A stretch of DNA of 15,236 bases, from UHGV virus genome UHGV-1333077. One strand, written 5' to 3'. The DNA is from a virus. The position numbers and the translations under genes were made by a program. The notes under the pieces were generated by a model. The model was not told where the DNA came from and did not search any database. It worked only from the letters and a program-made list of their open reading frames with translations. Within the stretch, counting starts at the first letter, position 1; each line of letters begins with the position of its first letter. Of this stretch, positions 672 to 14,652 are shown piece by piece.

Positions 672-1112
672 ATGCAGAAATATATTTTCAGTGCCGATAA
701 AAATGCGCTTTTCCCTGTGGAGCTTAAAATCGCTTATCAGGAATCCGGCGAATGGCCCGATGATGGAATCGAAATTGACGACACTGTTGCCGCCGAATTT
801 ATGAAGGAAGCACCAGAAGGAAAATACAGAGGTGTCATCGACGGAATGCCTGCATGGATTGATATTCCACCGCCAACTCATGAGGAACAAATTGCCGCAG
901 CCGAATTGGAAAAGCAGCAATTGATTAATCAGGTCAACGAATACATAAACAGTAAGCAATGGCCTGGTAAAGCGGCGATTGGTCGCCTGAAAGGTGAGGA
1001 ACTGGCGCAATATAATTTGTGGCTGGATTATCTGGACACACTGGAACTGGTCGATACTTCCGGTGCGCCAGATATTGAATGGCCTACGCCTCCGGCAGTT
1101 CAGGCCAGATGA
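672..1112 (+). CDS. tfa: Tail fibre assembly protein (Tfa-family chaperone), alternative copy paired with Sv'
   Basis: 146 aa. The C-terminus ...NLWLDYLDTLELVDTSGAPDIEWPTPPAVQAR carries the conserved Tfa motif (lambda Tfa ends ...VLLNRVDTSTAPDIEWPAVPVME, recalled). Its 3' end overlaps the 3' end of the minus-strand tfa by 29 bp. Confidence 0.75.
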   Translation: MQKYIFSADKNALFPVELKIAYQESGEWPDDGIEIDDTVAAEFMKEAPEGKYRGVIDGMPAWIDIPPPTHEEQIAAAELEKQQLINQVNEYINSKQWPGKAAIGRLKGEELAQYNLWLDYLDTLELVDTSGAPDIEWPTPPAVQAR

Positions 1113-1686
1113 CATCCGGCGCGGTGCTGGTATCTGTTNNNNNNNNNNCGTCAATGTAATCCAGCACAGCGTTAAGCCGGGTTGTTTCTGCCTGCGTCAG
1201 TTTACGTCCGGCCCGTAATTTCAGCTGAATCAGACTAATGGAAGCCATTGCAGCATCAATCAGTGACTGGCGTTGGATTTCTGCCGCGTCCACTGCGGCG
1301 CTATATTGTGCCTCAGTATCCGTCACCCATTTCTCACCATCCCATTTATCATATGGTGTTAACGGGGTGATAGTGGTTATATTTTCAGGGTAATCACCCA
1401 GAGCTGTGATTTCTTTCGATTCTCCTGTTTCGGTGCTATAGACGATTTCACCGCGATGGTCTGACACATATTCCCATGAGTTAAAATCCACAGAACGGCA
1501 GATTGCATAACCATCTTTATGTGTAACTGGTGCATCTAAACAAGAACATGCCGGGATACCGACGCCAACCGCAAGATACTCAGTTGATGTGGAAATATAT
1601 TCCCGCGTTTCTCCGTTGTAGTTATAAACGGTAATGAAGCCGGGTTCCGTGGCAATAAATTCACTGTTTAATTTTACCTGTGTCAT
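1084..1686 (-). CDS. tfa: Tail fibre assembly protein (Tfa-family chaperone), copy coupled to the expressed stf
   Basis: 200 aa. C-terminus ...LNAVLDYID[gap]TDTSTAPDVIWPELPEA matches the Tfa motif. Its ATG (1686-1684) overlaps the stf stop TAA (1688-1686) in a TAATG arrangement, indicating translational coupling. Contains the N gap at 1139-1148. Confidence 0.85.
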   Translation of the reverse strand: MTQVKLNSEFIATEPGFITVYNYNGETREYISTSTEYLAVGVGIPACSCLDAPVTHKDGYAICRSVDFNSWEYVSDHRGEIVYSTETGESKEITALGDYPENITTITPLTPYDKWDGEKWVTDTEAQYSAAVDAAEIQRQSLIDAAMASISLIQLKLRAGRKLTQAETTRLNAVLDYIDXXXXTDTSTAPDVIWPELPEA

Positions 1687-2586
1687 TATGCAGCCCTCAC
1701 GATGTAGTTAAATGCAATGTTTCGCGGTCGAACTTTGTGATAAGTTACGCCTTCCGAGGTTTTCGTGGCTTGAACTGTGTGGACTCCATAGGTGGGGTGC
1801 GCTTTCCCTACCTCAGAATCGTCAATACCAATTCCACTGAAGCCGCCCAGCTGAGCGGAAAATCCTGTTGCTTCCTGTGAAGAAAGTAATGCCCTGCCAC
1901 TGTCAACCCCGCGCCCGTCATCCCAGCCACGAATAAACTCACCGCGTAAATCAGGTAAGTTATTTGTTGGATAAGCCTTTGCCAGTTCCGGGTATTCTTC
2001 TGCAGAAAAAGGCGCACCATTGCATTTCAGCCAGCCTGTTGGCGGAGTGGCTGAAGGCCATGGAACAGGCACCCCAACAGGTAATGCTGAGCCTTCTCCC
2101 AAACCAAGTTTTGTGAGAGCGTCTGCGGCATTCGTTGCGCCGGTTCCGCCGTCAGCGATTGCAAGCGCACCATTGCTCCCTTTCTGCGCAAGTTTACCGA
2201 TGCCTGGGATGGTTACGGCGGTGCCGTTGATGGTAACGGTGATGCTCTGGTTTGCTGAGGTGGTGGCGAACGTCTCCCACGCGCCAATATTCTCGTCGTA
2301 CTCTTTGATGAGCTGTGACATAGCCTGTGCCAGGCCGTCGACCGAGATATTGTCTGATACCAGAATGCCGTACTTCTGGCCGCTCAGCGCCGGGGAAGCA
2401 GCTGGAGTAACCGTCATTGACGTGGCGCTGTTTACGGATGAAATCTGGAACAACTGCACCGGGTTAGACATCACGATAATCGTCTGGCCAGCGCGGACCT
2501 GTCTGGCGGGAGCTGTCCAGTTTGTGCCGGAGCCNNNNNNNNNNGGTATTTCCGTTAATAGAGATAGTTCCGGTGCTATAAATCAT
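1686..2586 (-). CDS. stf: Short side tail fibre protein (lambda Stf-like C-terminal receptor-binding/collar region); constant 5' part 2586-2108, invertible 3' part 2107-1686
   Basis: ATG at 2586-2584 with SD AGGAG (complement of 2592-2596). N-terminus MIYSTGTISINGNT, then N gap 2535-2544, then GSGTNWTAPARQVRAGQTIIVMSNP... The gap changes the apparent frame, so the track starts the ORF at 2474. C-terminal ...LGLGEGSALPVGVPVPWPS...LPDLRGEFIRGW...NIAFNYIVRAA parallels lambda Stf ...YLGAGENSAFPAGAPIPWPS...NIAFNYIVRLA (recalled). Confidence 0.8.
2093..2107 (-). repeat. Invertase crossover-site inverted repeat, stf-internal copy (minus-sense ttggtttgggagaag)
   Basis: Plus strand reads cttctcccaaaccaa. 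Lies in the stf frame as (c)tt-ggt-ttg-gga-gaa-g = LGLGE. With neighbouring bases it forms a hix/gix-like imperfect palindrome CTCTCACAAAAC TT GGTTTGGGAGAA. Confidence 0.7.
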
Positions 2587-3026
2587 AACAACTCCTAAAT
2601 TTAGACAACATGAAGCCCGGAGAGGTATATAACCCTCACCAGAAATAATTTCTGAATTGGTTTTTAATACATGTTGGGCAACGCCAGTGTTGGCATAGCT
2701 ATAGTTGTATCAAATGCCATTGACCACCCACCCAAATAATAATTGCCGACTACTTTATTCCTTTCTGCTCTGACATTCCCACCTGTCATTACAATNNNNN
2801 NNNNNNNATATTTCCGTAACCACCAACGTGTCGACAGTTAGCCCCGGTATAAACAATCTGGCAAAATTCATCACCAATATTCAGGTTCGCATTGGCGATA
2901 TTTATTGTCCCATCAAAAATGAATGGCTTCGTGCAAGTAAGAAGACGTTTGCGTTGACGATTGGTTTATTCAATCCATCAACTAAAATACCATGTAAACG
3001 AATTGCCATAACATTTCCCACTTTAT

Positions 3027-3054
3027 TTTACTTACTCAACACAACAAGTATATT
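3027..3054 (+). promoter_or_regulatory. Candidate sigma70-type promoter for the lipoprotein gene (TTTACT-N16-TATATT) in an AT-rich spacer
   Basis: Hexamers read by eye at 3027-3032 and 3049-3054, about 37 nt upstream of the ATG at 3091. Weak -35 match; not validated. Confidence 0.2.
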
Positions 3055-3090
3055 AAAATTGAACCTTGTCAACAACACAAAGGAGTCCCA

Positions 3091-3324
3091 ATGAAACTCG
3101 CTCTAATTATGCTGCCATTATGTCTGTCCCTCACTGCATGTGGTAATGGTTTAAATACCGGTAAACCAAATTCCGGTGTCATTCCAAAACCTTTGGATCG
3201 AGATGGTAACGGTTCTTTAATTTATGATACCGAAAACCTTCCAATGACGGGGCAGTGGTGTCACGAGATTGATCACGAATACCGACGAATCGGTAGCCCT
3301 TCTAACTGTGTTATAGACTACTAA
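3091..3324 (+). CDS. Small predicted lipoprotein (77 aa), accessory 'moron' gene of unknown function, convergent with J
   Basis: MKLALIMLPLCLSLTAC: signal peptide with lipobox L-T-A-C. SD AGGAG at 3081-3085 with 5-nt spacer. Preceded by a markedly AT-rich region and followed at once by a hairpin terminator. Confidence 0.6.
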   Translation: MKLALIMLPLCLSLTACGNGLNTGKPNSGVIPKPLDRDGNGSLIYDTENLPMTGQWCHEIDHEYRRIGSPSNCVIDY

Positions 3325-3355
3325 ATATTAACCCCTCAAAAGAGGGGTTAATATT
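3325..3355. terminator. Bidirectional stem-loop terminator between the lipoprotein gene (+) and J (-)
   Basis: aatattaacccctc-aaaa-gaggggttaatatt: 14-bp perfect inverted repeat with a 4-nt loop and U-rich 3' arm in both orientations. Sits exactly between the lipoprotein stop (3322-3324) and the J stop (3356-3358). Confidence 0.55.
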
Positions 3356-6300
3356 TTAACCTGTGAATGAACCAGATCCGTGTGATACTATGACAGTAGG
3401 CGAATAAATGGACGCGCCCCTGTTATTTTGAGCGGACACTTTAATACGTACTGTTACGTTTGGACCTGTTATAACAGCAGAATGCATAATAAGTCTCTCC
3501 ACGTCTTGCACAGATGAACCACTCTCATTGCCGTTAATATTGATTAGTCCTGCACCATTACCTTTAACGTTTGCTATAACACAGACGTGTCTTGCGTGCC
3601 CAGAACTGGATGAATCCGTATAAGTTATTACCTTTTCTAAAAGGCCGTCACTAGACCGACTAACGTCAGTTCCGGTGTGCATATTTGCAATGTCCCCGAT
3701 AAAACTTTGGGCTTCCACAGTCCCTTTGAATTTACCGCTTGTTGCTTGTATCTCACCAGTAAATCTACCGCCACTAGCATATACTACACCTCTGACGGTC
3801 ACATTGTTGAATTCAGCATCTCCAGCTTTATTCAACTTCCAACCAGCAGAACCAGCTGCATAGTTGTTGGACTGGATATAGTTACCGATTTTTGCGTTCT
3901 CAATGGTGCCGTCCTGGATGAAGCTGGCCCGGATGAATGTCTGTCCATTCTGGATCACAAACGGCAAAGCCACGCTATTTCCGGCTGCCGTGGTGACGGC
4001 GAAGCGATCAGCCAGGAAGATAACCTGCGACTGCATGCCGGATGGCGTATTCTCCACGCCGATACCCATCCCCGCGGCGTAATACTGCCCGTTGCTGGAG
4101 ACACCAACTTTGATGTTGTACATCGCGCTGAGGTCGCCGTTTACGTTCGCTATAGCCTGAGCGTTGGTTGTGATGGCTGAGGTATGCCCGTTCACCGTCG
4201 CCGTGATGCTGTTTACCTGCGTGGCCATAGCCTGCTGGTAATCGGAGAACGTCTGGTTCAGGCTGTTGATGGATGCCTTGTTNNNNNNNNNNCGTCTGCA
4301 GGCTCAGCAGCGAGCGCGCCGTTGCCTCCCTGTCGTTGACAATCACCTCATCAATACGGTCCAGATTCGCGCTGTTGCCGGCGACCGATGCAGAAAGGGT
4401 TTTACGCGTGGCCACCTGAGCGAGGTTGGCCTGGATTATCGCAATTGCAGAGTTCTTCACCCCGCCCGTCATGCCGTCCATCGACACAGAAATCTCGTCG
4501 ATCTTCACTTCGGCCTGAGCCAGCCCGTCAGCGTTCTCCAGGATGTCTTTCGCCTGCTGCTCGAGTTCGTCGGCATGGTTTTTAATTTCGTCAGCCATGC
4601 CAGCAATTTTTTCGTTGCTGTCCACCGCGTTCTCGATCAGATCTTTGAACGTATCGGAGCCTTTCATGTCCTCCAGGATTGCATCGGTGATATCGGAAAC
4701 ATCGATGCTGGCCTGTCCTCGCACCCATTCTGTGTACCCTGATTCGTTGCCGCTGCGGTCCACCAGCTGAGCGCGGTACCAGAAAATCTGCCCAGCCTTG
4801 AGGCCCATCTGCTGATACTTGCGCTGCGGATAGGGTACGTCTGCCAGCAGCATCGCATCGTCTTCCGTCCCAGTCAGACTGTACTGAATTTCCGTCTTCA
4901 GCGTGTCGTCGGTGTTCGCCGGGAATCCCCAGCTCAGCTCGATACCGAATACCACATTATCGGAAGCGATGAAGCCAACCGGCTTCGGTGGATTGCCCAC
5001 TTTACCCGTCAGCGTTTTCTCTTCTGAATAGCCCCATCCGGATGAAATTTCTGCGGCATTGATTGCGCGCACCCGCACCAGGTAGCGCCCGGCATAAATC
5101 CCCGGGACGTCGAATGACGTGGTGGAGGTGCGCGGCACGTTAACCCAGTTCCCGTCGTTGCGGCGCCATTGCGCTTCATAGGCGATAGCGTTCTGCGCCT
5201 GGTCCCAGCTAACGCGCATCGTTTCGACGCTGATATTTTGCTGCACCACGGAAAACGAGCTGATCACGATGTTCGCAGGCGGCGACTGGTTACCAGGCGG
5301 GATCACGCTCACCGGCCGCTGGTCAATGATGGCTCCGGTATCGATGCGGGCATATTTATCCGGGTCGTGCCATGCGCCGGTGATTGAGAAAGTGCCATCA
5401 CCGTTGTCGGAGACGCTGACAACACGATACTGCTGCGCGTAAAGCTCGTCAGATTCAACCACCCAAACAGCTTCGGCCTGTGGCGTCTCACTGTATGCCG
5501 TGGTGACTGTGACTGATTCCCCGTTCACGGCCTGAATGGTCCTGCTCTGCGACGCTCCGGAGGGAAGGTTGAGAATAAGGCGATCACCTGGTGCTGCATC
5601 AGCTACGCGGTCAAGTTTGATAACGCGACCGTTAACGGCGCTGATGCGGCCGCCCATAACCTTTCCGGAAAGCAGCTCGTCTGCCACGGCGATGATGTAG
5701 CCAGGCTGCGGAATGTTTCCGTCCAGCCCGACATCAAACGAAACAACGCGATCCTTGTTGTTGGTGAGAATGCCCCAGCGCCCCTTTCGGTTCGCTTCTG
5801 ACTGCCTGGTGCAGCCGATGGCTGTCATTTCCAGCTGATTGAAGCCGTATCGCGCTACCAGCGCCTGCTCAAATACCGGCTCCATCGCGTCGGCATAAGC
5901 GTTACCCGGGTCTGACCATGAAACCAGCGCTGTGGTGTAGCGGGTTTTCGTGGTGCTGCTTGAATAGGTGAAGCGACCGCCAACAACGTTGGCGCGCGTG
6001 TAGCTGTAATCAACATCTCGGGGCATATCGGCCAGAGCAACGATCTGATCGCCTCCCCAGTACGTCATGCCACGGAATATGGCCGCAAAATCACGCAGGA
6101 CTGTATAAGCGTCGTTTCGGTCCTGGATGTACACGTTGCAGGTATAACGTGGTTCGGTACCGTTGCCCCCTTTGCCGTCTGGTACCATCTGATCACAATA
6201 CTGGGCAACCTGATAAAGCGTCCATTTATCAATATTCGCAGCGGTCAAACGGTGCCCGAGGCCGAACCGGGCAGAAACAACCAGATCGTAAAAAATCCAC

Positions 6301-7157
6301 GCAGGGTTATCCGTCCATGCCCACTTAAACGCACCGGTCCATGTACCGCTATAAGTGCGGGTTTCAGGGTCGTAGGTATCTGGAACGCGGATAACACGGC
6401 CGCGGGGCTCGCAGGAGATCTGCGGGATAGAGCCGTTAAACTGACTTGAATCGAATTCGATGTAGAGTAGCGCTGTGTTTGGATATCGTAACTTGGCGTC
6501 AATCACCTCGGTGAAGCTCTGCAGCGTCATCGTGTCGCCGATCTTCGCGCTGTTGGCATCAGAGGTAATCTTACGCAGACGTATTGTCCAGGTGCTGCCA
6601 GCTTGCGGTAAATCGATACGGTGGCTGCGCTCATAACCAGACGTCGTTTTGCCGGTCACGCTGGTATTGAGTACCGTCTGNNNNNNNNNNCATGTGCCGC
6701 CGTCCGTCTGCAGGTCAATCGCATAATTGACCGAGTAACCCACCAGATCTCCGTCGTCTTCCTGTTTGAAAAGCGAGGGCCATTTCAGACGCAGACGAAC
6801 TGCTGAAAGCTGCGTATTGGTAAACGTGCGCGTCCAGGCTGTAGCGCTTGATACCTCAGTTCCCACGCTGATTTCGTTTTCGGTACCGGGAATACCCTGA
6901 ATATATTTTTGAGCCTGCGTCCCCGCGCGAAACTCCCACGTCACGCCGCTGAAGTTTTGGGAACCGTCGGCATTCTCCAGCGCCGTTCCGTCCAGGTAGA
7001 TATCTTTGCCGGTTAGCTGCCCTGCGAACTCCCCTTCGCCAAGCGCAACGAGGATTTTTGCCTTCGCTACAGATTGCAGATCATCAGGCTGTTCGGTAGG
7101 AGTTCGTGAACTGGATTTGCCGCCTTTGCGCCCCTTTAATACTTTCTCTGTAGCCAT
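3356..7157 (-). CDS. J: Tail tip / host-specificity protein J (central tail fibre)
   Basis: N-terminal 1049 aa (track ORF 4008..7157) resemble lambda J. The N gap at 4283-4292 shifts the apparent frame; the true C-terminal about 290 aa continue as the track ORF 3356..4228. The gap at 6681-6690 is also inside the gene. Confidence 0.9.
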
Positions 7158-7168
7158 ATCGCGTCCAT

Positions 7169-7192
7169 AAAAAAAGCCACCCGAAGGCGGCT
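7169..7192 (-). terminator. Intrinsic terminator on the minus strand ending 11 nt upstream of the J start codon
   Basis: Minus-sense AGCCGCC-TTCG-GGTGGCT followed by TTTTTTT (7-bp stem with one G-U pair, UUCG tetraloop, U7 tract). Confidence 0.5.
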
Positions 7193-7323
7193 ACTGTTTA
7201 AATATCAGGCTGTTGGTAACAGGAATCCCTGGTTAATGTGTAAGCTCAGCCCGCCAGTGGTAGGCCTCTGGCGTTAACTGACCGAGGGATGGCTGAAGTA
7301 CCCGGGTAAAATGGAGTAATAAG

Positions 7324-7539
7324 ATGATCGAAGAAAAGTTCGTGGATTTTAGATTTACTCTTGACGAAAATATTCCTAGAGAAATCGCTTTAGAAATTGT
7401 GGCTCTAAGACAAGTTACAATGGTATTAACAGCAGCATTGCCAGTAGATACAAGGCAACAAGTTATTGAAATCCTATCAAAGACAAACTCACCACAAATT
7501 CAAGACATCGTCAAAAATATGAAGCTTATTGACGCCTAA
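7324..7539 (+). CDS. Hypothetical small acidic protein (71 aa) in the AT-rich I-J insertion
   Basis: ATG at 7324 with GGAG 7 nt upstream. AT-rich codon composition unlike the flanking tail genes. A plus-strand hairpin terminator candidate follows at 7562-7588. Its 3' end overlaps the minus-strand 49-aa ORF. Confidence 0.4.
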   Translation: MIEEKFVDFRFTLDENIPREIALEIVALRQVTMVLTAALPVDTRQQVIEILSKTNSPQIQDIVKNMKLIDA

Positions 7540-7638
7540 TGTCATTGAAGCATCGTACTCTACGGTCTCATGCGGGACCGTTTCATTAACTTCAGATGTT
7601 TCATTTTCAGTTTTTTCTACTCGTGACTCAAAAGACAT
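7489..7638 (-). CDS. Hypothetical small acidic protein (49 aa), directly downstream of gene I; below the size cutoff of the supplied ORF track
   Basis: Manual translation: MSFESRVEKTENETSEVNETVPHETVEYDASMTLGVNKLHIFDDVLNLW. Strong SD AAGGAG (complement of 7645-7650) with 6-nt spacer, beginning 8 nt after the I stop codon. Overlaps the 3' end of the + ORF 7324..7539, so at most one of the two may be real. Confidence 0.3.
   Translation of the reverse strand: MSFESRVEKTENETSEVNETVPHETVEYDASMTLGVNKLHIFDDVLNLW
7562..7588 (+). terminator. Candidate plus-strand hairpin terminator after ORF 7324..7539
   Basis: acggtctc-atgc-gggaccgt stem (8 bp including one G-U pair) followed by tttcatt. The T tract is imperfect. 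Confidence 0.3.
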
Positions 7639-7658
7639 ACACATCTCCTTAACTTAGC

Positions 7659-8257
7659 TTACTGCTGATCTTCGACATATATCCCGGCAGAAATAATCGC
7701 TCCGCCGATTCGACGCTTACCATAAAGCAGAGGCACTGGGTAGCCTTGCGCTGCAGTGTTGGTTACCCCGCCAAACGCATACGATGNNNNNNNNNNNNNN
7801 NNNNNNNNNNNNNNNNNNNNNNNNNNNNNNNNNNNNNNNNNNNNNATAACATCTGAACTACCCCCCCCAGCGTTATGGACGCACCAGCAGCAAACATCAT
7901 ATTGCTGGCAGCTATACTCAGACCTGGCATCCAGATCGATGCAATCACTAATACTGCGCCCAGGATAGTTTGAATCAAACCGGCTTTTTTACTCCCGATG
8001 ATTACCGGAACAATGCGAATAACCTCGCCGGTAATCGGGAAGCCAAGGTCATCCACACCGATGTTTTTTTTACCCTTAAACACGGAGTATGTGAGCCCAC
8101 GGCGTTGGCTGGAAATCATAAACTGCTCAAATCCAGGAATGGTTTTTGCGAGTGCAACGCCTGCTTCGCTTACGCGGGATATCAGACGGTAGTGAACTTT
8201 GCCAAACGTTTTTCCAAGAACACTGCCTAATTCAATTCGACTCATGACCTCTTGCAT
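7659..8257 (-). CDS. I: Tail assembly protein I
   Basis: N-terminal part resembles lambda I (...IVPVIIGSKKAGLIQTILGAVLVIASIWM...GGVVQML). A 59-N gap (7787-7845) interrupts it. Beyond the gap the lambda-like C-terminus AQGYPVPLLYGKRRIGGAIISAGIYVEDQQ is in another apparent frame and ends at TAA 7659-7661. The track end at 7763 is a gap artefact. Confidence 0.85.
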
Positions 8258-8272
8258 ATAATCCCCCCACGT

Positions 8273-8296
8273 AAAAAAAACCGCCGAAGCGGTTTA
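8273..8296 (-). terminator. Intrinsic terminator for the K-I lipoprotein gene, upstream of I
   Basis: Minus-sense AAACCGC-TTCG-GCGGTTT followed by TTTTTTTT. Located 24-47 nt downstream of the lipoprotein stop. Confidence 0.6.
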
Positions 8297-8319
8297 ATTT
8301 GGTTGATTTATTTAGGTGT

Positions 8320-8715
8320 TTATTTATTAAAATGTTTCTTTTCAATGCTCATTGCTTGATTAAAGAAATTTGTAGCATTAATTACCGCCCTTTCACAATC
8401 CTTCTGCCCATAATGTCGATGGCATTGGAATTCAGCATTTATTGCCGTATCGCCGGACTGTTTAACCTTAGATGCCCGTCCTGCAAGTTGCCTTGTATCA
8501 ATAGGTGGGAATGTTGTTATAAATGTATCGTTAGCTGATTCTACTCTCATTTTTGTTGCAAACTCCAAATGCTGAGGAACCTTCGACCAAAGATAACTAC
8601 ATTCAGCCTCTGATGAACATGTGACAGGCTTAGTATCTAATACCGGCATTGGCCTATTATCAGCACATCCAGCGGTGGCAAGCACCACAAGACCAGAGAA
8701 CAATATTTTTTTCAC
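8320..8715 (-). CDS. Predicted lipoprotein (131 aa), accessory 'moron' gene inserted between tail genes K and I
   Basis: MKKILFSGLVVLATAGC: signal peptide with lipobox-like TAGC. GTG start with GGGAAG-type SD. Four further Cys in the mature part. AT-rich relative to flanking tail genes. Own terminator downstream. Not a lambda gene. Confidence 0.65.
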   Translation of the reverse strand: MKKILFSGLVVLATAGCADNRPMPVLDTKPVTCSSEAECSYLWSKVPQHLEFATKMRVESANDTFITTFPPIDTRQLAGRASKVKQSGDTAINAEFQCHRHYGQKDCERAVINATNFFNQAMSIEKKHFNK

Positions 8716-8802
8716 AATTAAGCTTCCCTTTCATTGAAAATATCAGAGGAATACTAACATGAAGTTATGGAGTGAGTAATTAACAACTTAACCACTATAG
8801 AA

Positions 8803-9513
8803 TTAACAAAATACTTTGTACCGAAGTACTTTCATTGTTCTTTCCTGCCAGTAGCCACCATATGGCACGCGCTGGCTAAGATGACCGTACAAATGATGCA
8901 GTAGCATATTGCCCTCAAGCAGGATCCCCGCGTGATTCCACTTATCGGCCTGGACCTGCATGATGATGAGGTCCCCTTCCTGAGGCGGGCCATCAAACTC
9001 CCTGAATCCGCACTCGTACCAGCACTCCTGATAGAAATTGTCCGGGTAGTCGTTTTCCCACCAGGGATAATCCACCCGGTAATCGTGGAGCTCGATACCG
9101 TGGGTCTGCCGGAAATAGCTCATTACCAGACCCCAGCAATCGAAGTGGCCAAGCACGAACGGACGCTCCAGCAATGGCAGCTCCCCGCGTGGCTGAATGG
9201 TACGTAAATCCCCCTCTGGCCAGCTCACAATATGCCAGGGCAGCAGCGTTGCATCACACTGTGCCTTATCCAGCTCGCTGGCCTGCGTCGTCGCATCAGG
9301 ATGGCTGTGAACAATGGCCACCACCGTCCCCCAGTCTTCTGCCGCTGCGTAATCTTCGGGGGACAGGTGAAAATGTTCAGTCGGCTCTGCTGCGAGATTA
9401 CGACAGGGAAAATAGCGCTCAACCCGGCTTTTCTGTGCCACCACGCCGCAGCACTCGCGCGGATATTCCGCTGCAGCGTGTGCCATGATGGCATCAATGG
9501 TTTTCTGGCGCAT
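8803..9513 (-). CDS. K: Tail assembly / tail tip protein K (MPN/JAB-like HSHP motif plus C-terminal NlpC/P60-like region)
   Basis: Position between L and I. HSHP motif and Cys...His arrangement typical of the gpK family. Probable start is ATG 9513-9511 (SD AGGAG, 5-nt spacer), 1 nt after the L stop; the track's 9549 start is an upstream in-frame extension. Confidence 0.85.
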   Translation of the reverse strand: MRQKTIDAIMAHAAAEYPRECCGVVAQKSRVERYFPCRNLAAEPTEHFHLSPEDYAAAEDWGTVVAIVHSHPDATTQASELDKAQCDATLLPWHIVSWPEGDLRTIQPRGELPLLERPFVLGHFDCWGLVMSYFRQTHGIELHDYRVDYPWWENDYPDNFYQECWYECGFREFDGPPQEGDLIIMQVQADKWNHAGILLEGNMLLHHLYGHLSQRVPYGGYWQERTMKVLRYKVFC

Positions 9514-9514
9514 A

Positions 9515-10279
9515 TCAACTCCTGATAAGAGATGTACCGGGGAAACCACCGAACGGCAGCTCGTTGCTGTATCCGTGCCGGAGCTTGCAGGCCGTCAGCG
9601 TGCCGTTGCATACATCCAGCGAGGGATCGTCAACCGGATTATTGTTTTTGTCGAAATAGCGCGTTCCGGCATAGTCGCAGCCGTCGCCGGTACGATATTT
9701 ATTCCGGATGCACCAGGTACACAGGGAATGAAGCTGTCGCGTCGGGATCATTTGCCCCTGCAGGTCCATCGGGCTGGATAGTGTGAACTCAACAACTTCA
9801 TTGGTTTCACTGCTCTTTGCATCGATGTAGAAAACCTTCAGCTTCTCCTGGGTCGGATCGGCTGTCGGATTGCCTCCGGTGAAGTTTCTCGCATCAAGAT
9901 ACTTACCAAGGGTGTCATGTATCGTCACCTTCGCCTGCAGCATATCGTCGTAAGCCAGGCAAAGCGCGGTGATCGAACTGTCGAGGTTAGCAACCGAAAG
10001 TTTTGGCTGGGCACTACTTCCCGAGGTTGAAGCTTCNNNNNNNNNNATCCCATCAATCTGGCATGGCCACGCTTTATACTCCTCACCCTGCCACCAGATA
10101 GATTTTGCTGGCAGTTTATTTTCATCACCGCCAGCAGCCTCAATCTCTTCCGGGGTATGCGCGATGTTATGTGCGTGGAAGCGGAGTACATCTGACATAC
10201 CGAACGCTGTGCCATCGACAGAAAAAAGCCGGACTTCATTGCCCGGCTCGAGTTTTTGATAATCAGCATTAAGACTCAT
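9515..10279 (-). CDS. L: Minor tail protein L
   Basis: 254 aa with the Cys-rich C-terminal region typical of gpL. ATGA overlap with the M stop. Contains the N gap at 10037-10046. Confidence 0.9.
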   Translation of the reverse strand: MSLNADYQKLEPGNEVRLFSVDGTAFGMSDVLRFHAHNIAHTPEEIEAAGGDENKLPAKSIWWQGEEYKAWPCQIDGXXXXEASTSGSSAQPKLSVANLDSSITALCLAYDDMLQAKVTIHDTLGKYLDARNFTGGNPTADPTQEKLKVFYIDAKSSETNEVVEFTLSSPMDLQGQMIPTRQLHSLCTWCIRNKYRTGDGCDYAGTRYFDKNNNPVDDPSLDVCNGTLTACKLRHGYSNELPFGGFPGTSLIRS

Positions 10280-10623
10280 GGTGCAAATGCCTGTTCAAAC
10301 GTTGCGGTTACGGTTATCACTTTTACGTTTTTAACCACCTTTTTGAGCGTGTCAGCCTCGACACGCCACAGCGCGGTATCGCCGAAAGGCGGTGTGAAAA
10401 TAAACGACTTCACTTTATGCCGCCGAAGGAAAGCGTGAATTTCATTCGCTGTAGTCGGATCCCCTGAGAAGGAAAATTCATAGGTGCGAATCTCATCATT
10501 CAGGCCGGAGCCGCTCACCTGTGCGTACCCGTCGCCGAACTGAACCTTCCTGACTGTGTCTTTGCTTCCCTCGGTGGGCTGGCTGGAAACCTTAATGCCC
10601 CAGGGGAATGTTTCTATCGTCAT
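10276..10623 (-). CDS. M: Minor tail protein M
   Basis: 115 aa. VRKVQFGDGYAQ...FTPPFGD parallels lambda M (VRKVRFGDGYSQ...WTPPYEW, recalled). Sits between H and L. Confidence 0.9.
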   Translation of the reverse strand: MTIETFPWGIKVSSQPTEGSKDTVRKVQFGDGYAQVSGSGLNDEIRTYEFSFSGDPTTANEIHAFLRRHKVKSFIFTPPFGDTALWRVEADTLKKVVKNVKVITVTATFEQAFAP

Positions 10624-10628
10624 AACTG

Positions 10629-13145
10629 TTACCTGCGATTGGTCGCATTCCAGATAAGCCCACCGGGCTGGATTGCCCTGGCGATACCCTCGTTGACAGA
10701 TTTGTTAATCACCTGCTGATACGCCTTACCCAGCCTGTCTCCGTCGTTTTGCTGCTGTGCGTTACCGGAAGCATTCTCGACCGTCACCGGCGCGTACACG
10801 CTCACCCCGAAAGGTGCTGCAGCGGGACCTGTACCACCGCCCCCGACATACCCTCCCGTGGCATAGCCTTTCATCATCCGGTAAAGATTGCCGACGCCGA
10901 TCCGGCTGGTAGCCTCTTTGGTGAAAACAAATTCGCCACGGTGAACGACACCTGCGGGTTCATATTTCCCGCCTGAACCGGTATAACCGCCACCTGCAAA
11001 TCCCAGCGCGGTTGATGCTGAATCCACTAAGCCTACCATCGCCTGTTTCAGCAGGATCTGTGTCAGCATGGAGAGCGTGGAGCGGGTGAAGTCAGCCCAG
11101 TCAGCCTTTCCGCGCGTCAGCATGTCAGCCATATTTTGCCCGATGCCATCAAACGCACTGGTGGCAGCCGACTTCATCTGGCCATAAGCATCTGAAGCAG
11201 AATCAACATAATCTGCCCATGCGGATTTGGCTCCGGACTGCCAGTCGTCCCGCAGCTTATCCTGCTCGGCGTAATACGCCTGCAGCGCCTGCAGCTCATT
11301 CTGATAACCAGCATCGTTCTCCGAACCACCACCATTTTTCCAGCCCTGAAGAAGCTGGGCCTCTTCATTGCGACGTTGTGCTGCACGACTGCTCATACCA
11401 GCACTTTCCGCAAGGGCTCGGGTTTTCTCGCCGATCTGCGTGACGTATTTTTGGGACGTATCCTGCAGGCGATTAAGCCGCTCCTGCGCCACTATCTGAT
11501 CGCCGAGCTTCGCATTCAGCTCCGCACGGGAAAGCACCTCACTTTTACTGGCCAGCAGGGATTTTTCCTCAGCAGAAAGCGTTCGGGTCTTCGCGGCCTC
11601 TTCCAGAACCGTAAAGCGGGACTGCTGACGCCACAGCTCCTGACGCTGCTGGCTGATGGTGTCATTGATGCTCTTATGCTCCTGCAGGGTGCGCAGCTGT
11701 GTCTGTAGCTCCAGCGTCTGGGCACTGGCCGTATCGGTGGCACGGGCACCTGCGGGGGTTCTGATTGCCGGGGTCTTCTTCGGCTTTTTAAGGGTGTCTT
11801 CGTACTCTTTTTTCGCGGCAGCCAGGTTGATGTTGTAGTCAGCCTGGAGGATCCGCCCCTCTTTCAGCGCCTTGTTGAGCTCGCTCTGCCTGGCCGTGTA
11901 TTTCTCCAGTGCCGTCTGCGTTTTGGCATAGTTTGCCTGTGCCTGCGCAGCATACTTCTGGCGATCCGATTCCGCAGCCGCTTCGCGCGATGCATTCTCT
12001 TCGTTCGCCCTGGCAATTCCCGCCTGCTGCTGCGCCATATCCAGCGCAAGCCTGGCCGTTTCGCGGTCATTCCAGAATCGGGCGCGAGCCTCATCATTGA
12101 CATATCGGTCACCTTTACGCAGGTTCCAGATTTCATCAGCTTTTTTGAACGCGGCTTCGGCTTTTGCCACCATCTCCTGCGCGGTGTCAGGTCGGCCAAT
12201 ATCGAGGGCTGCATCCCACATCGACTTGAAGGCGCGCTTCAGGGAGTCCGCTGAAGACTCTATCGTCCCCATATTGTCGCGGATGGCTTTGGTCTGATCG
12301 TTGAATCCGGCTGTAGCCGCCTCGTTAGCCGCCTGCAGTGCGCCAGCCTCATCACCGGCACGCTGCAGCTGCGCCACATGGGCAATCTGTTCTGCGGTAA
12401 CGTTATGGAACTGCTGGGCCATCGCGATCAGGCCCGATGTCGGGTCAGTTGCGAGCTTGCCGTAGGCTGCAGCGACTTTCTCCACCGGCACGCCGGAGGC
12501 ATCAGTAAACCGCGCCACCGCCTGGCTCATTTCATCAAAGCGCGAGCCAGTACGCACACCTGCATTGATAAGCTCGGTCAGGGCTTCACTGGTCTGGTTG
12601 AACGTTAGCCCCGCTGCCTGTCCGTTCCGCGCCAGTGCCAGCATGCGGTCAGCTGTCAGTCCGGCTGTGTTCCCCGACAGTACCAGCGTTTTGTTGAAAT
12701 CAGACAGAGTGGAAGAGCCCTGGTACCAGGCATAGAACAACGCGCCCGTTGCAACGGACAATGCACCAATGCCGACCATCAACGGGGAAATCGTCCCCAG
12801 CAACGCCCGGAATGTCGGAATGATCCCGCCAAAGGAGTCCTTAACCTGACCGCCCTGCTGAAGCAGAATCAGCCAGGGGTTCTGCCCACCCGCCAGCTGC
12901 GTGGCCACGTCAGTAAACTGCGCCGGGAGCATACGCATCGCTGCGTTATACTGACCCACTGAAATACCGGCCTTACGCGCGGCGTTCTCCTGGCGGCTGA
13001 AGGACTGCTGGATACGTAACGCTTCATCGTTTGCCGTATTGCCGGTCTGTTTTAATTCTTTTTTGACGTAGCTGAGCTGCTCGTTGAATTTTGTCGAGTT
13101 AACGTCAAGGTTAACGACCAGATCACCGACTGCCGTCTGGGCCAT
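10629..13145 (-). CDS. H: Tail tape measure protein H
   Basis: 838 aa. Long stretches match recalled lambda H nearly exactly (GISVGQYNAAMRMLPAQFTDVATQLAGGQNPWLILLQQGGQVKDSFGG...; C-terminal GGKYEPAGVVHRGEFVFTKEATSRIGVGNLYRMMKGYATGGYVG). Confidence 0.95.
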   Translation of the reverse strand: MAQTAVGDLVVNLDVNSTKFNEQLSYVKKELKQTGNTANDEALRIQQSFSRQENAARKAGISVGQYNAAMRMLPAQFTDVATQLAGGQNPWLILLQQGGQVKDSFGGIIPTFRALLGTISPLMVGIGALSVATGALFYAWYQGSSTLSDFNKTLVLSGNTAGLTADRMLALARNGQAAGLTFNQTSEALTELINAGVRTGSRFDEMSQAVARFTDASGVPVEKVAAAYGKLATDPTSGLIAMAQQFHNVTAEQIAHVAQLQRAGDEAGALQAANEAATAGFNDQTKAIRDNMGTIESSADSLKRAFKSMWDAALDIGRPDTAQEMVAKAEAAFKKADEIWNLRKGDRYVNDEARARFWNDRETARLALDMAQQQAGIARANEENASREAAAESDRQKYAAQAQANYAKTQTALEKYTARQSELNKALKEGRILQADYNINLAAAKKEYEDTLKKPKKTPAIRTPAGARATDTASAQTLELQTQLRTLQEHKSINDTISQQRQELWRQQSRFTVLEEAAKTRTLSAEEKSLLASKSEVLSRAELNAKLGDQIVAQERLNRLQDTSQKYVTQIGEKTRALAESAGMSSRAAQRRNEEAQLLQGWKNGGGSENDAGYQNELQALQAYYAEQDKLRDDWQSGAKSAWADYVDSASDAYGQMKSAATSAFDGIGQNMADMLTRGKADWADFTRSTLSMLTQILLKQAMVGLVDSASTALGFAGGGYTGSGGKYEPAGVVHRGEFVFTKEATSRIGVGNLYRMMKGYATGGYVGGGGTGPAAAPFGVSVYAPVTVENASGNAQQQNDGDRLGKAYQQVINKSVNEGIARAIQPGGLIWNATNRR

Positions 13146-13451: not shown

Positions 13452-13878
13452 TCAGCTCACTGGCGAGGACTTTTCCGCAGTAACGGGTTCAGCGGGATCA
13501 TTACGTTCTTCACCGGATGAAGTCGGTTCTTCAATGACAGGCGCAATCATCCCGGACAGGAGTTTCACCTTATATTCCGCTTCGGCAACCAGTTCGGTCG
13601 GCCATGACTGCATGACCTCATCCTGAATCTTTGCCACTTCCGCCGCCGCATTTTCTCCCTGGGAGCCTTTCAGTTCGTGGCCGTGCCAGAGTGACATCGC
13701 CACGAGGAACGCCCCACTTTTTANNNNNNNNNNNNNNNNNNGCCGCCTGAAAATCGCCAGCTTCAACTGCCTCAAGTTGTTTCAGGTATTCGAGGTATTC
13801 AATACGCTGCAGCGCCGACAGCTGGAACAATGTGACGCTGCTGCCGTTACTTTCAAGCAGCTCGCTCTTTAGAAACAT
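13452..13878 (-). CDS. G: Tail assembly chaperone G
   Basis: MFLKSELLESNGSSVTLFQLSALQRIEYLEYL... and ...GAFLVAMSLWHGHE...DPAEPVTAEKSSPVS parallel lambda G (MFLKTESFEHNGVTVTLSELSALQRIEHL...; ...GAFLVAMSLWHNH...AGPAEPVSAGKCSTVS, recalled). The N gap at 13724-13741 splits it into two apparent ORFs in the track. Confidence 0.85.
13470..13476 (-). promoter_or_regulatory. Putative -1 programmed ribosomal frameshift heptamer GGAAAAG near the 3' end of G
   Basis: Minus-sense ...ACT GCG GAA AAG TCC... The -1 frame from here reads GGA AAA GTC ... straight into T. Lambda uses GGGAAAG at the equivalent place (established knowledge); this heptamer differs at position 3. Confidence 0.5.
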
Positions 13879-13914: not shown

Positions 13915-14652
13915 TCAGGAAACAGTGACTTTGCAGATCGCCACAAAGTTACCGTCATTGCTCATTACGATGATCTCGACGGTGCCTGCCGCCACGCCGG
14001 TAACAGTCAGGGTATTGCCGCTGACGGTGACCGTTGCTTTTGACGGATCAGAACTGGCTACGCGGAAAGACTTATCTGAAGCACTTGCTGGCAGGACAGA
14101 AACAACCAGTTGCACAGTTTCACCGACCGCAACAGCTGCAGTGGATTTATCCAGGCTGATCCCCGTAACGGCAATCGGCGCGGTACCACTGTCTTCGGCC
14201 AGCGATGGTTTGCCATTGTTGGTGATTTTTGCCGTGCGGGTCATGACCTCTTTGGACGTAATGGTCTTGCCGAGACTGCTCACCCAGCCCTTAAACACAT
14301 CGACAACACCATTCGGATATTTGATTTTATACCCCTTCACGGTGCCTTCATCGAACCAGTTCACCAGGTCCTGCTGACCGGAATCCTCCGGCATCCATGC
14401 GAGCGTCAGGTTTGTTTCACCGGCTGATTTCTGCCCCTGCATCGTTGATGTCCAGTCGGCATTCTCATCATCGATGTAGGTGTCATCTTCCGATTCAGCT
14501 GTCAGTTCTCCGGGCTGCAGGTCTTTAATCTTTGCCAGGCGCAGCCAGTCAACGTCTGAAAGCGGATTGGCGTATGGATCACCAGTTCCGGTGTAAACCC
14601 AGAGGGTGGTACCAGCACCTTTTGTTGGTGCCAGCGGGTTTGGTGTGGCCAT
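13915..14652 (-). CDS. V: Major tail protein V (with C-terminal Ig-like domain)
   Basis: 245 aa, closely parallel to recalled lambda V ([49 protein letters not shown]...GQKSAG.T..TLAWMP...; C-terminal DKSFR...KATV.VSG.T.TV.GVAAG). Confidence 0.95.

Follow-up and report, generated by a model that had tools for sequence, protein, structure and literature searches.

A lipoprotein gene with its own terminator in the K-I moron slot of a lambdoid tail module, and its possible role in envelope-level phage exclusion

Why should a lipoprotein gene lie between two phage tail genes, and what could its product do for the phage that carries it? We addressed this question in a 15,236-nucleotide stretch of the virus genome UHGV-1333077, called the window below, at its positions 8,258 to 8,802. 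A preliminary description, made from the letters of the DNA, had proposed that an AT-rich insertion with a lipoprotein gene and a terminator forms a moron at this point. The minus strand of the window is a lambda/HK97-type tail module, and the lipoprotein gene is co-oriented with the tail genes:

13915-14652, minus strand: tube protein V.
10629-13145, minus strand: tape measure H.
10276-10623, minus strand: M.
9515-10279, minus strand: L, with Pfam Phage_tail_L.
8803-9549, minus strand: tail gene K, with Pfam Prok-JAB and NlpC/P60, phrog_30 minor tail protein; upstream of the lipoprotein gene in the direction of transcription.
8258-8813: the insert read as a moron, an AT-rich block between K and I, defined as the part without counterpart in the insert-free locus L004.
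8320-8715, minus strand: 131-aa lipoprotein gene, from the ORF and its translation; start codon at 8715-8713.
7670-8257 (end approximate), minus strand: tail gene I, phrog_32 tail assembly protein; downstream of the lipoprotein gene.
From 7157, minus strand: J, with the tail-tip domain at 3356-4228.

The window contains nine masked runs of N, one of which (7787-7845) interrupts gene I; the end coordinate of I was taken from the annotation of the related locus L001, with an offset of 110. Gene I has its own ribosome-binding site, GGGGGGA.

The insertion was delimited by comparison with E. coli ECCRA-119 (L004), in which K and I overlap without an insert and J directly follows I. The window aligned to this locus over 7846-8257 and 8814-9700, with no match for 8258-8813. 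The breakpoints of homology, 8257/8258 and 8813/8814, give the inserted block a length of 556 bp. This comparison with an insert-free prophage, which the preliminary description had called for, bears out that DNA was inserted between K and I; the proposed length of about 545 bp holds as the distance from the K stop to the I start and fails as the size of the block. The insert was rightly described as AT-rich, its GC content being 37.4% against 55% in K, 56% in J and 58% in H. Only two of 5,426 complete E. coli genomes carry it, both copies being 100% identical over the 556 bp, a distribution far from that of an ORF kept in all relatives as a tail component, which had been named beforehand as the observation that would speak against a moron. 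E. coli EC23HZZ201 and MSB1_9D are lysogens that carry the cassette. A block of ~1.2 kb (7846 to ~9045), which runs from the 5' part of I through the insert into the 3' third of K, is near-identical in all three E. coli copies. Upstream of this block, identity to L001 is 88% over the whole of K and 77% in L, and nearly all the mismatches in K are located upstream of 9046. The block of identity is, as the alignments present it, a case of the usual lambdoid mosaic exchange by flanking homology. Direct repeats flanking the insert were looked for and none was found; hence, a transposition signature is absent.

The K-I junction holds other genes elsewhere. In E. coli MB06232 (L003), the slot is occupied by a 74-aa YebO-family gene (PF13974), whose product is 96% identical over residues 24-74 to that of the same-slot gene of HK97, HK022, HK75 and many mEp/HK phages. 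In the HK022 record, the gene in the K-I slot is labelled 'gp20, moron gene product'. In the HK97 record, gp20 also lies in this slot, a putative terminator is placed just before I, and two genes between I and J, gp22 and gp23, are labelled 'moron product' and 'reverse moron product'. From these YebO-like occupants we conclude that the window carries new cargo in a classical moron slot. The window locus and HK022/HK97 gp20 have in common an identical K-I slot, a terminator just before I and an HK97-like tail module, whereas their products differ: gp15 and gp20 are YebO-like (PF13974), short, and cross the inner membrane once, while the window protein is a 131-aa folded lipoprotein with no sequence relation to them, which gave no Pfam match when tested for YebO. 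Morons, as defined in HK97 and HK022, are additional stretches of DNA, expressed autonomously, that separate two genes which related phages carry side by side. In the window, there is extra DNA between genes adjacent in relatives, its nucleotide composition is unlike that of the neighbouring genes (37.4% against 55-58% GC), and it has its own predicted terminator (8295-8273), which is conserved. The insert-free L004, the YebO gene of L003 and gp20 of HK022/HK97 support the proposed gene-plus-terminator moron, and we are highly confident that the cassette is a moron and that it encodes an exported lipoprotein. The element type is textbook; the new part is an unnamed cargo family in a known slot.

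The lipoprotein gene starts with GTG, not ATG, and the protein begins MKKILFSGLVVLATAGC. Residues 1-16 are the signal peptide and Cys17 is the lipobox cysteine. The lipobox segment, MKKILFSGLVVLATAG followed by C, matches the PROSITE PS51257-type lipoprotein pattern, which asks for an N-terminal basic region, a hydrophobic core and a lipobox ending in Cys within residues 15-35. The ORF translation and this lipobox confirm the 131-aa lipoprotein that had been predicted. The same pattern was found in 31 of 38 family members, the other members being truncated or near misses. In enterobacteria, the Lol system sorts lipoproteins to the outer membrane when the +2 residue is not Asp. The +2 residue is Ala in the window protein, from which outer-membrane sorting is predicted under this rule, and it is Asp in none of the 38 family members. 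The mature region contains four further cysteines (C33, C39, C98 and C107), as the preliminary description had it. In the family alignment, C33, C39, W43, T68 and F118 are invariant, and the lipobox Cys, M56, C98 and C107 nearly so; the two conserved pairs, C33/C39 and C98/C107, would fit a disulfide-bonded periplasmic domain.

These properties bear on the possibility that the gene encodes a tail assembly factor or a virion component of this tail type. Its position between two tail-tip assembly genes, and the recurrence of the family beside tape-measure genes, would agree with such a role. However, a protein with a Sec/SPII signal, a lipobox and disulfide cysteines leaves the cytoplasm, where tails assemble; near-identical tail modules lack the gene or have an unrelated gene in the slot; and paralogues are found in nin and lysogeny regions. 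The gene is thus neither conserved among relatives with the same tail nor of the cytoplasmic kind expected of a tail protein. Because of the export signals and of this pattern of presence and absence, we consider a role in the tail very unlikely indeed, and the earlier caveat that the product might be a virion component is largely retired by an exported lipoprotein with conserved disulfide cysteines.

Around the gene, the following candidate expression signals were identified:

8751-8759, minus strand: candidate extended -10 element, TGtTAGTAT, ~35 nt upstream of the start codon.
8723-8729, minus strand: Shine-Dalgarno-like AGGGAAG, read from the sequence, 7 nt upstream of the GTG.
8273-8295, minus strand: intrinsic terminator predicted by a terminator scan, with a 7-bp stem, a UUCG loop and a U8 tract; RNA folding keeps the hairpin.

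The alignment of orthologue upstream regions revealed that GGAAG or GGAGA is kept at the ribosome-binding site. In five diverged upstream regions, the TG, T1, A2, A5 and T6 of a TGnTAnnAT motif are invariant, ~30-35 nt before the start codon. A promoter consensus scan of the window called no promoter upstream of the lipoprotein gene, because the -35 is poor: none was recognisable. In the Enterobacter orthologue, TTGCCT-16-TATGAT preceded by TG was flagged by the promoter scan. From the conserved extended -10 motif, we infer that the cassette has its own promoter. The terminator hairpin, AAACCGC-TTCG-GCGGTTT, lies at 8295-8278, and the T8 run ends at 8273, 15 nt before the I start codon (8257). 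A terminator is present at every orthologous locus: E. coli, Enterobacter (L011), Citrobacter (L007-L010) and six IMG/VR contigs (L034-L039). In Citrobacter, it reads AAGCCGC-GAAA-GCGGCTT, with one compensatory change from A-U to G-C in the stem and GAAA, a different stable tetraloop, as the loop. The textbook terminator described at this distance from I is therefore upheld both by the terminator scan and by its conservation in orthologues; an Rfam search gave a single sub-threshold match, on this hairpin. The dN/dS of the lipoprotein gene ranges from 0.08 to 0.17 in pairs with a dS of 0.07-1.2, values by which the gene is under purifying selection. Since the gene, the terminator and the -10 motif are kept in relatives down to 63% protein identity, at such a dN/dS, they are more than a product of chance.

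We regard expression of the lipoprotein gene in the lysogen as somewhat more likely than not. The opposite case would be a late gene used in the lytic cycle only, silent in the prophage, which helps lysis and release or masks the receptor on debris. Co-oriented with the late tail operon, the gene would indeed be part of the antiterminated late transcript, and the candidate promoter of the window is weak. T5 Llp has a role of this lytic-cycle kind. Yet it is difficult to see why a gene confined to the late transcript should keep a dedicated terminator directly before I, with a compensatory change in its stem. The conservation of the extended -10 motif and the presence of a family member just after a CI-type repressor also speak against this case. 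We therefore regard an exclusively lytic role as hardly probable.

The preliminary description had not recognised the protein, and the homology searches gave it no name. Searched with the window protein at E <= 0.1 and with the 38 family members at E <= 0.01, Pfam returned no family. NCBIfam gave no match for either, and no PADLOC-DB defence model matched the window protein (E <= 1) or the members. The sole match in PHROGs was phrog_16082, of unknown function, and WP_053263847 is mentioned in no paper in the literature search. Modelling with AlphaFold2 and the family alignment yielded a beta-alpha-beta4-alpha domain (pLDDT 92, pTM 0.80), predicted to be a small helix-grip-like fold. The best structural matches of this model are BamC domains, at 10-17% identity and TM-scores of 0.34-0.43, which makes them weak; KA1 and START helix-grip domains score nearly as high, so that the likeness to BamC is at fold level only. 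A sequence profile search of the PDB matched the signal peptide only, and the BFVD viral fold library contained no match at E <= 0.001. The structure search suggested in the preliminary description has thus supplied a fold of the helix-grip kind, while its best match remains a weak one.

The distribution of the family shows where such a protein is carried. In a word-indexed search of 5.8 billion proteins, the hits fell into just five clusters, whose sources were E. coli, Enterobacter hormaechei and Citrobacter amalonaticus. When 1.84 billion cluster representatives were searched exhaustively with HMMER, 70 clusters came out at E < 0.001, nearly all of them 115-180-aa lipoproteins from metagenomes. 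A degenerate-pattern scan was precluded by the diversity of the family alignment. With Megablast, phage records yielded no match; with tblastn, 50,697 phage records yielded just two paralogues, both uncharacterised, and plasmids none. A scan of one genome per species gave a spurious signal-peptide match only. Close orthologues (63-99% identity) always lie between K and I, the order K-gene-I being kept in E. coli, Enterobacter, Citrobacter and the six IMG/VR contigs. More distant members occupy other phage slots. The slot of HK97 gp15, flanked by the tail chaperone gene on one side and the tape-measure gene on the other, is filled by a member in two siphophages, one phiJL001/GTA-like (L015/L040) and one lambda-like (L041); another member is directly upstream of an M-like gene (L017) and another directly after a tape-measure gene (L014). 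In the nin region, members are located between a hok-like gene and ydfU/rusA/Q in two coliphages and in 255 of 5,426 E. coli genomes, every one of them annotated 'hypothetical protein'. One member adjoins integrase fragments (L012). A divergent member (L042; hhalign probability 96.8%) lies beside an integrase and directly downstream of a CI-type repressor (HTH and Peptidase_S24), a position typical of lysogen-expressed genes. Finally, three Burkholderiaceae-type contigs carry chromosomal members, each as the last gene of a conserved operon that encodes a histidine kinase, a GerE-type response regulator, a receiver protein, a 337-aa secreted protein and the lipoprotein, in this order. From the spread over phage slots and this chromosomal branch, the family is, as far as gene neighbourhoods can tell, mobile moron cargo with a cellular root.

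The Burkholderiaceae-type operon, with its kinase, regulators and secreted 337-aa protein, raises the possibility that the lipoprotein acts in envelope signalling, as an outer-membrane sensor or partner, RcsF-like or NlpE-like in logic, that binds an outer-membrane beta-barrel or the periplasmic domain of a kinase. It would then rewire a stress or capsule response of the host, with phage resistance, if any, as an indirect effect. In size and in its two putative disulfides the lipoprotein may recall RcsF, and its best structural matches are to BamC, itself a lipoprotein of the outer-membrane-protein assembly machine. Nevertheless, neither a kinase gene nor a gene for an outer-membrane protein is linked to the phage copies of enterobacteria, Pfam gave no match to RcsF or NlpE, and the likeness to BamC is weak. 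The 337-aa partner has an outer-membrane-protein-like C-terminus, GFAMSF; since it has neither a Pfam nor a PDB match, its beta-barrel nature is something that we only infer. A signalling role thus appears quite improbable. A related and equally speculative proposal, to which we would give little credence, is that the two-disulfide lipoproteins of ~130 aa are a new phage-borne class of envelope effectors, independent of any one receptor. The family would have descended from a cellular sensor lipoprotein that partnered an outer-membrane protein and a two-component system, and its BamC-like helix-grip domain, anchored to the outer membrane, would bind an outer-membrane beta-barrel, the BAM machinery, or, within the periplasm, the tape-measure and tip proteins of incoming siphophages. 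On this proposal, the gene would recur beside tape-measure and tip genes because its domain binds such targets.

Tail-operon morons have been the source of several first-found exclusion and lysogenic-conversion genes, among them HK97 gp15, Cor and Lom. The best overall explanation of the locus, which we hold at about even confidence, is a moron that encodes an exclusion lipoprotein acting at the envelope. Exchanged horizontally as a unit, the cassette would bring a single gene together with its candidate extended -10 promoter, its ribosome-binding site and its intrinsic terminator. The pre-lipoprotein would be exported by Sec, lipidated on Cys17 and cleaved by signal peptidase II; with Ala at +2, the Lol system would deliver it to the inner leaflet of the outer membrane, where a helix-grip-like domain of ~100 residues with two disulfides would face the periplasm. 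While the prophage is repressed, a weak promoter within the cassette would drive the gene and the cassette's terminator would halt transcription, leaving I and J silent; in lytic growth, Q-antiterminated late transcription would read through the cassette. The lipoprotein may then act against incoming phages by superinfection exclusion or by receptor interference, at the outer membrane or in the periplasm, and late in infection it could also keep progeny from adsorbing to debris.

Exclusion itself, as the function of the protein, is argued by analogy. HK97 gp15, a YebO-family moron of the tail operon, is expressed from the prophage and was experimentally shown to confer superinfection exclusion (PMC3594210). 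In mEp coliphages, lipoprotein genes located inside the structural clusters confer phage exclusion upon expression (PMC11893012), and the phage-exclusion lipoproteins Cor (phi80/N15/HK022), T5 Llp, mEp021 Lpp021 and mEp010 Lpp010 act at the outer membrane (PMC3594210; PMC11893012). Like the window protein, these four are phage lipobox lipoproteins encoded in or beside tail or host-range genes. They differ from it in size (72-78 aa against 131 aa) and in that their exclusion is tied to the receptor type, whereas the window gene is found with several types of J. Homology to Cor or to mEp Lpp021 was considered and rejected; hhalign against Lpp021 aligned the signal peptide only (probability 29%), and in the carrier L002, Cor is a separate 77-aa protein annotated downstream of J. 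The exclusion logic proposed here would hence be like that of Cor, Llp and HK97 gp15, three proteins to which the window protein has no homology. We favour exclusion because the alternative occupant of the K-I slot belongs to the YebO family, like the phage-excluding gp15, because members of the lipoprotein family sit in the gp15 slot and after CI, and because lipoproteins of the tail region (Cor, Llp, Lpp021 and Lpp010) recur as a solution to exclusion at the outer membrane.

Several observations weigh against this reading: the promoter of the window has no recognisable -35 and was uncalled by the consensus scan, no PADLOC defence model was matched, and the place of the Burkholderiaceae relatives in a two-component-system operon suggests an ancestral role other than defence. 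In addition, the carriers have at least three types of J C-terminus, which weakens a strict masking of the phage's own receptor. In the window and in L001, the J C-terminus is of the HK97 type, its last 250 aa sharing 78% identity with HK97; the L002 carrier has an HK022-type J with cor downstream; and the Citrobacter carriers have a third type. Moreover, the J of L002 is 99.6% identical to that of L003, which carries the YebO gene instead. Since the J C-termini of carriers differ, the lipoprotein gene is not tied to one receptor specificity; by these comparisons it travels with K and I, and not with the tip of J. That the lipoprotein strictly masks the receptor of its own J is therefore rejected. 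With these points taken together, we put forward phage exclusion as a tentative function, to which we give somewhat less than an even chance.

The absence of a link to one J receptor type would also suit a different benefit, to the host itself. Here, the moron cargo would be an outer-membrane lipoprotein for host fitness or virulence, contributing to serum resistance, adhesion, permeability or stress tolerance, in the manner of Bor. Lambda Bor is indeed an outer-membrane lipoprotein moron that confers serum resistance (PMC3594210). The likeness is that both would be outer-membrane lipoproteins encoded by morons of lambdoid phages, Bor being expressed in the lysogen; the difference is that bor lies in the lysis region and that the Bor fold is not among the structural matches of the window protein. 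The same features of the cassette that we read as those of an exclusion gene would serve such a gene equally, and the carrier strains come from a pig and from a human rectal swab. However, the window protein lacks the Lambda_Bor Pfam domain and resembles neither Bor nor any other Pfam family. The family also recurs in the tail modules of unrelated siphophages from environmental metagenomes, where virulence in an animal host is not an obvious selection. A fitness or virulence role is accordingly unlikely in our estimate, though it deserves to be weighed.

To a specialist, the architecture of the locus is unsurprising; what gives it value is the cargo family, which may act in exclusion and has a confident predicted fold, clear export signals, a presence in at least five phage moron slots and a paralogue in ~5% of complete E. 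coli genomes. If the lipoprotein is an exclusion factor, it would represent a new anti-phage family of the outer membrane or periplasm that current defence-finder libraries miss, with consequences for the host range of phage therapy in Enterobacteria. Otherwise, it would be one more lysogenic-conversion gene of unknown benefit.

Elsewhere in the window, the I-J junction (7158-7669) has a GC content of 41% and contains two further features:

7324-7539, plus strand: 71-aa ORF, phrog_6806.
7175-7192, minus strand: terminator, just before J.

The 71-aa ORF was compared with HK97 gp23 and HK022 srb and rejected as a homologue of either. Downstream of J, a low-GC stretch (~2550-3350), which is the cor site in relatives, carries small plus-strand ORFs with no Pfam match. 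Further on, two convergent genes for tail-fibre assembly occupy 672-1112 on the plus strand and 1084-1686 on the minus strand.

Firstly, we compared the lipoprotein insert and its flanks among three E. coli prophages, the window itself and the insert-bearing L001 and L002. A block of ∼1.2 kb (window 7846-9045), running from the 3' third of K through the moron into the 5' part of I, differs among them by only 0-2 mismatches, and upstream of position 9046 identity to L001 falls to 88%, then to 77%. From this alignment we place a sharp mosaic boundary inside K at about 9046. The orthologue of Enterobacter hormaechei (L011, CP143743.1) lies on a stand-alone record of 45,670 bp; instead of an integrated prophage, this may be an entire phage genome or a phage-plasmid.

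Secondly, we found that the I-J junction is occupied as well (window 7158-7669, 41% GC), by the following features:

7324-7539, plus strand (reverse-oriented): 71-aa ORF, phrog_6806, unknown function
7192..7175, minus strand: hairpin-and-T terminator immediately ahead of the J start codon

In HK97, gp22 and gp23 ('moron' and 'reverse moron') occupy this same slot. The 71-aa ORF was considered as a homologue of HK97 gp23 or HK022 srb and rejected, since it has no homology to either. Relatives carry different cargo at this junction: L002 has a 210-aa ORF, and L003, the prophage with a YebO-family gene between K and I, has two ORFs. A 13-nt perfect inverted repeat (GATACAAGGCAAC; window 7447-7459 and 8487-8499) lies in the 71-aa and lipoprotein ORFs, and its sense reading in both is Asp-Thr-Arg-Gln. 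The match is probably due to chance, because ∼0.03-0.05 such repeats would be expected in 1.9 kb.

Several ORFs of the window (I, J and L) are broken by masked positions, and the lengths listed for these three are therefore unreliable. The nine runs of N are:

611-620, 1139-1148, 2535-2544, 2796-2807, 4283-4292
6681-6690, 7787-7845, 10037-10046, 13724-13741

Thirdly, we analysed the region downstream of J, where GC is low (37-41% at 2550-3350), and the adjacent fibre genes:

2828-3094 and 3091-3324, plus strand: small ORFs, no match in Pfam
1686-2474: Collar-domain fibre gene, adjoining the two Caudo_TAP genes
1084-1686, minus strand: Caudo_TAP tail-fibre assembly gene
672-1112, plus strand: Caudo_TAP tail-fibre assembly gene

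The exclusion lipoprotein gene cor is present in the post-J region of L002, L003 and the insert-free L004; none was detected among the window ORFs checked. The opposed Caudo_TAP genes beside a Collar-domain fibre gene suggest that host range is set here by an invertible segment. In relatives, a gene for a 'recombinase family protein' adjoins the fibre genes.

Finally, members of the lipoprotein family occur outside the K-I slot. The Paraburkholderia-type chromosomal homologues are the last gene of a conserved operon (L025:1855-6399, L026:3823-8465, L027:1965-6387), preceded in order by genes for a histidine kinase, a GerE-type response regulator, a single-domain receiver and a 337-aa secreted protein. 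The latter, which ends in GFAMSF, has no match in Pfam or PDB and is possibly an outer-membrane barrel. A divergent member (hhalign probability 96.8%), missing the first Cys pair, immediately follows a CI-type repressor gene and is convergent with an integrase gene (region L042:5129-7259), a position in the lysogeny module. A paralogue with 30% identity (L005:5001-5393, L006:5001-5393) shares the Cys pattern and has LGGC as its lipobox; in the nin region it is flanked by a hok-like 'host killer' gene on one side and by ydfU/rusA/Q on the other. Of 5,426 complete E. coli genomes, 255 carry the paralogue's gene, in every case under the annotation 'hypothetical protein'.
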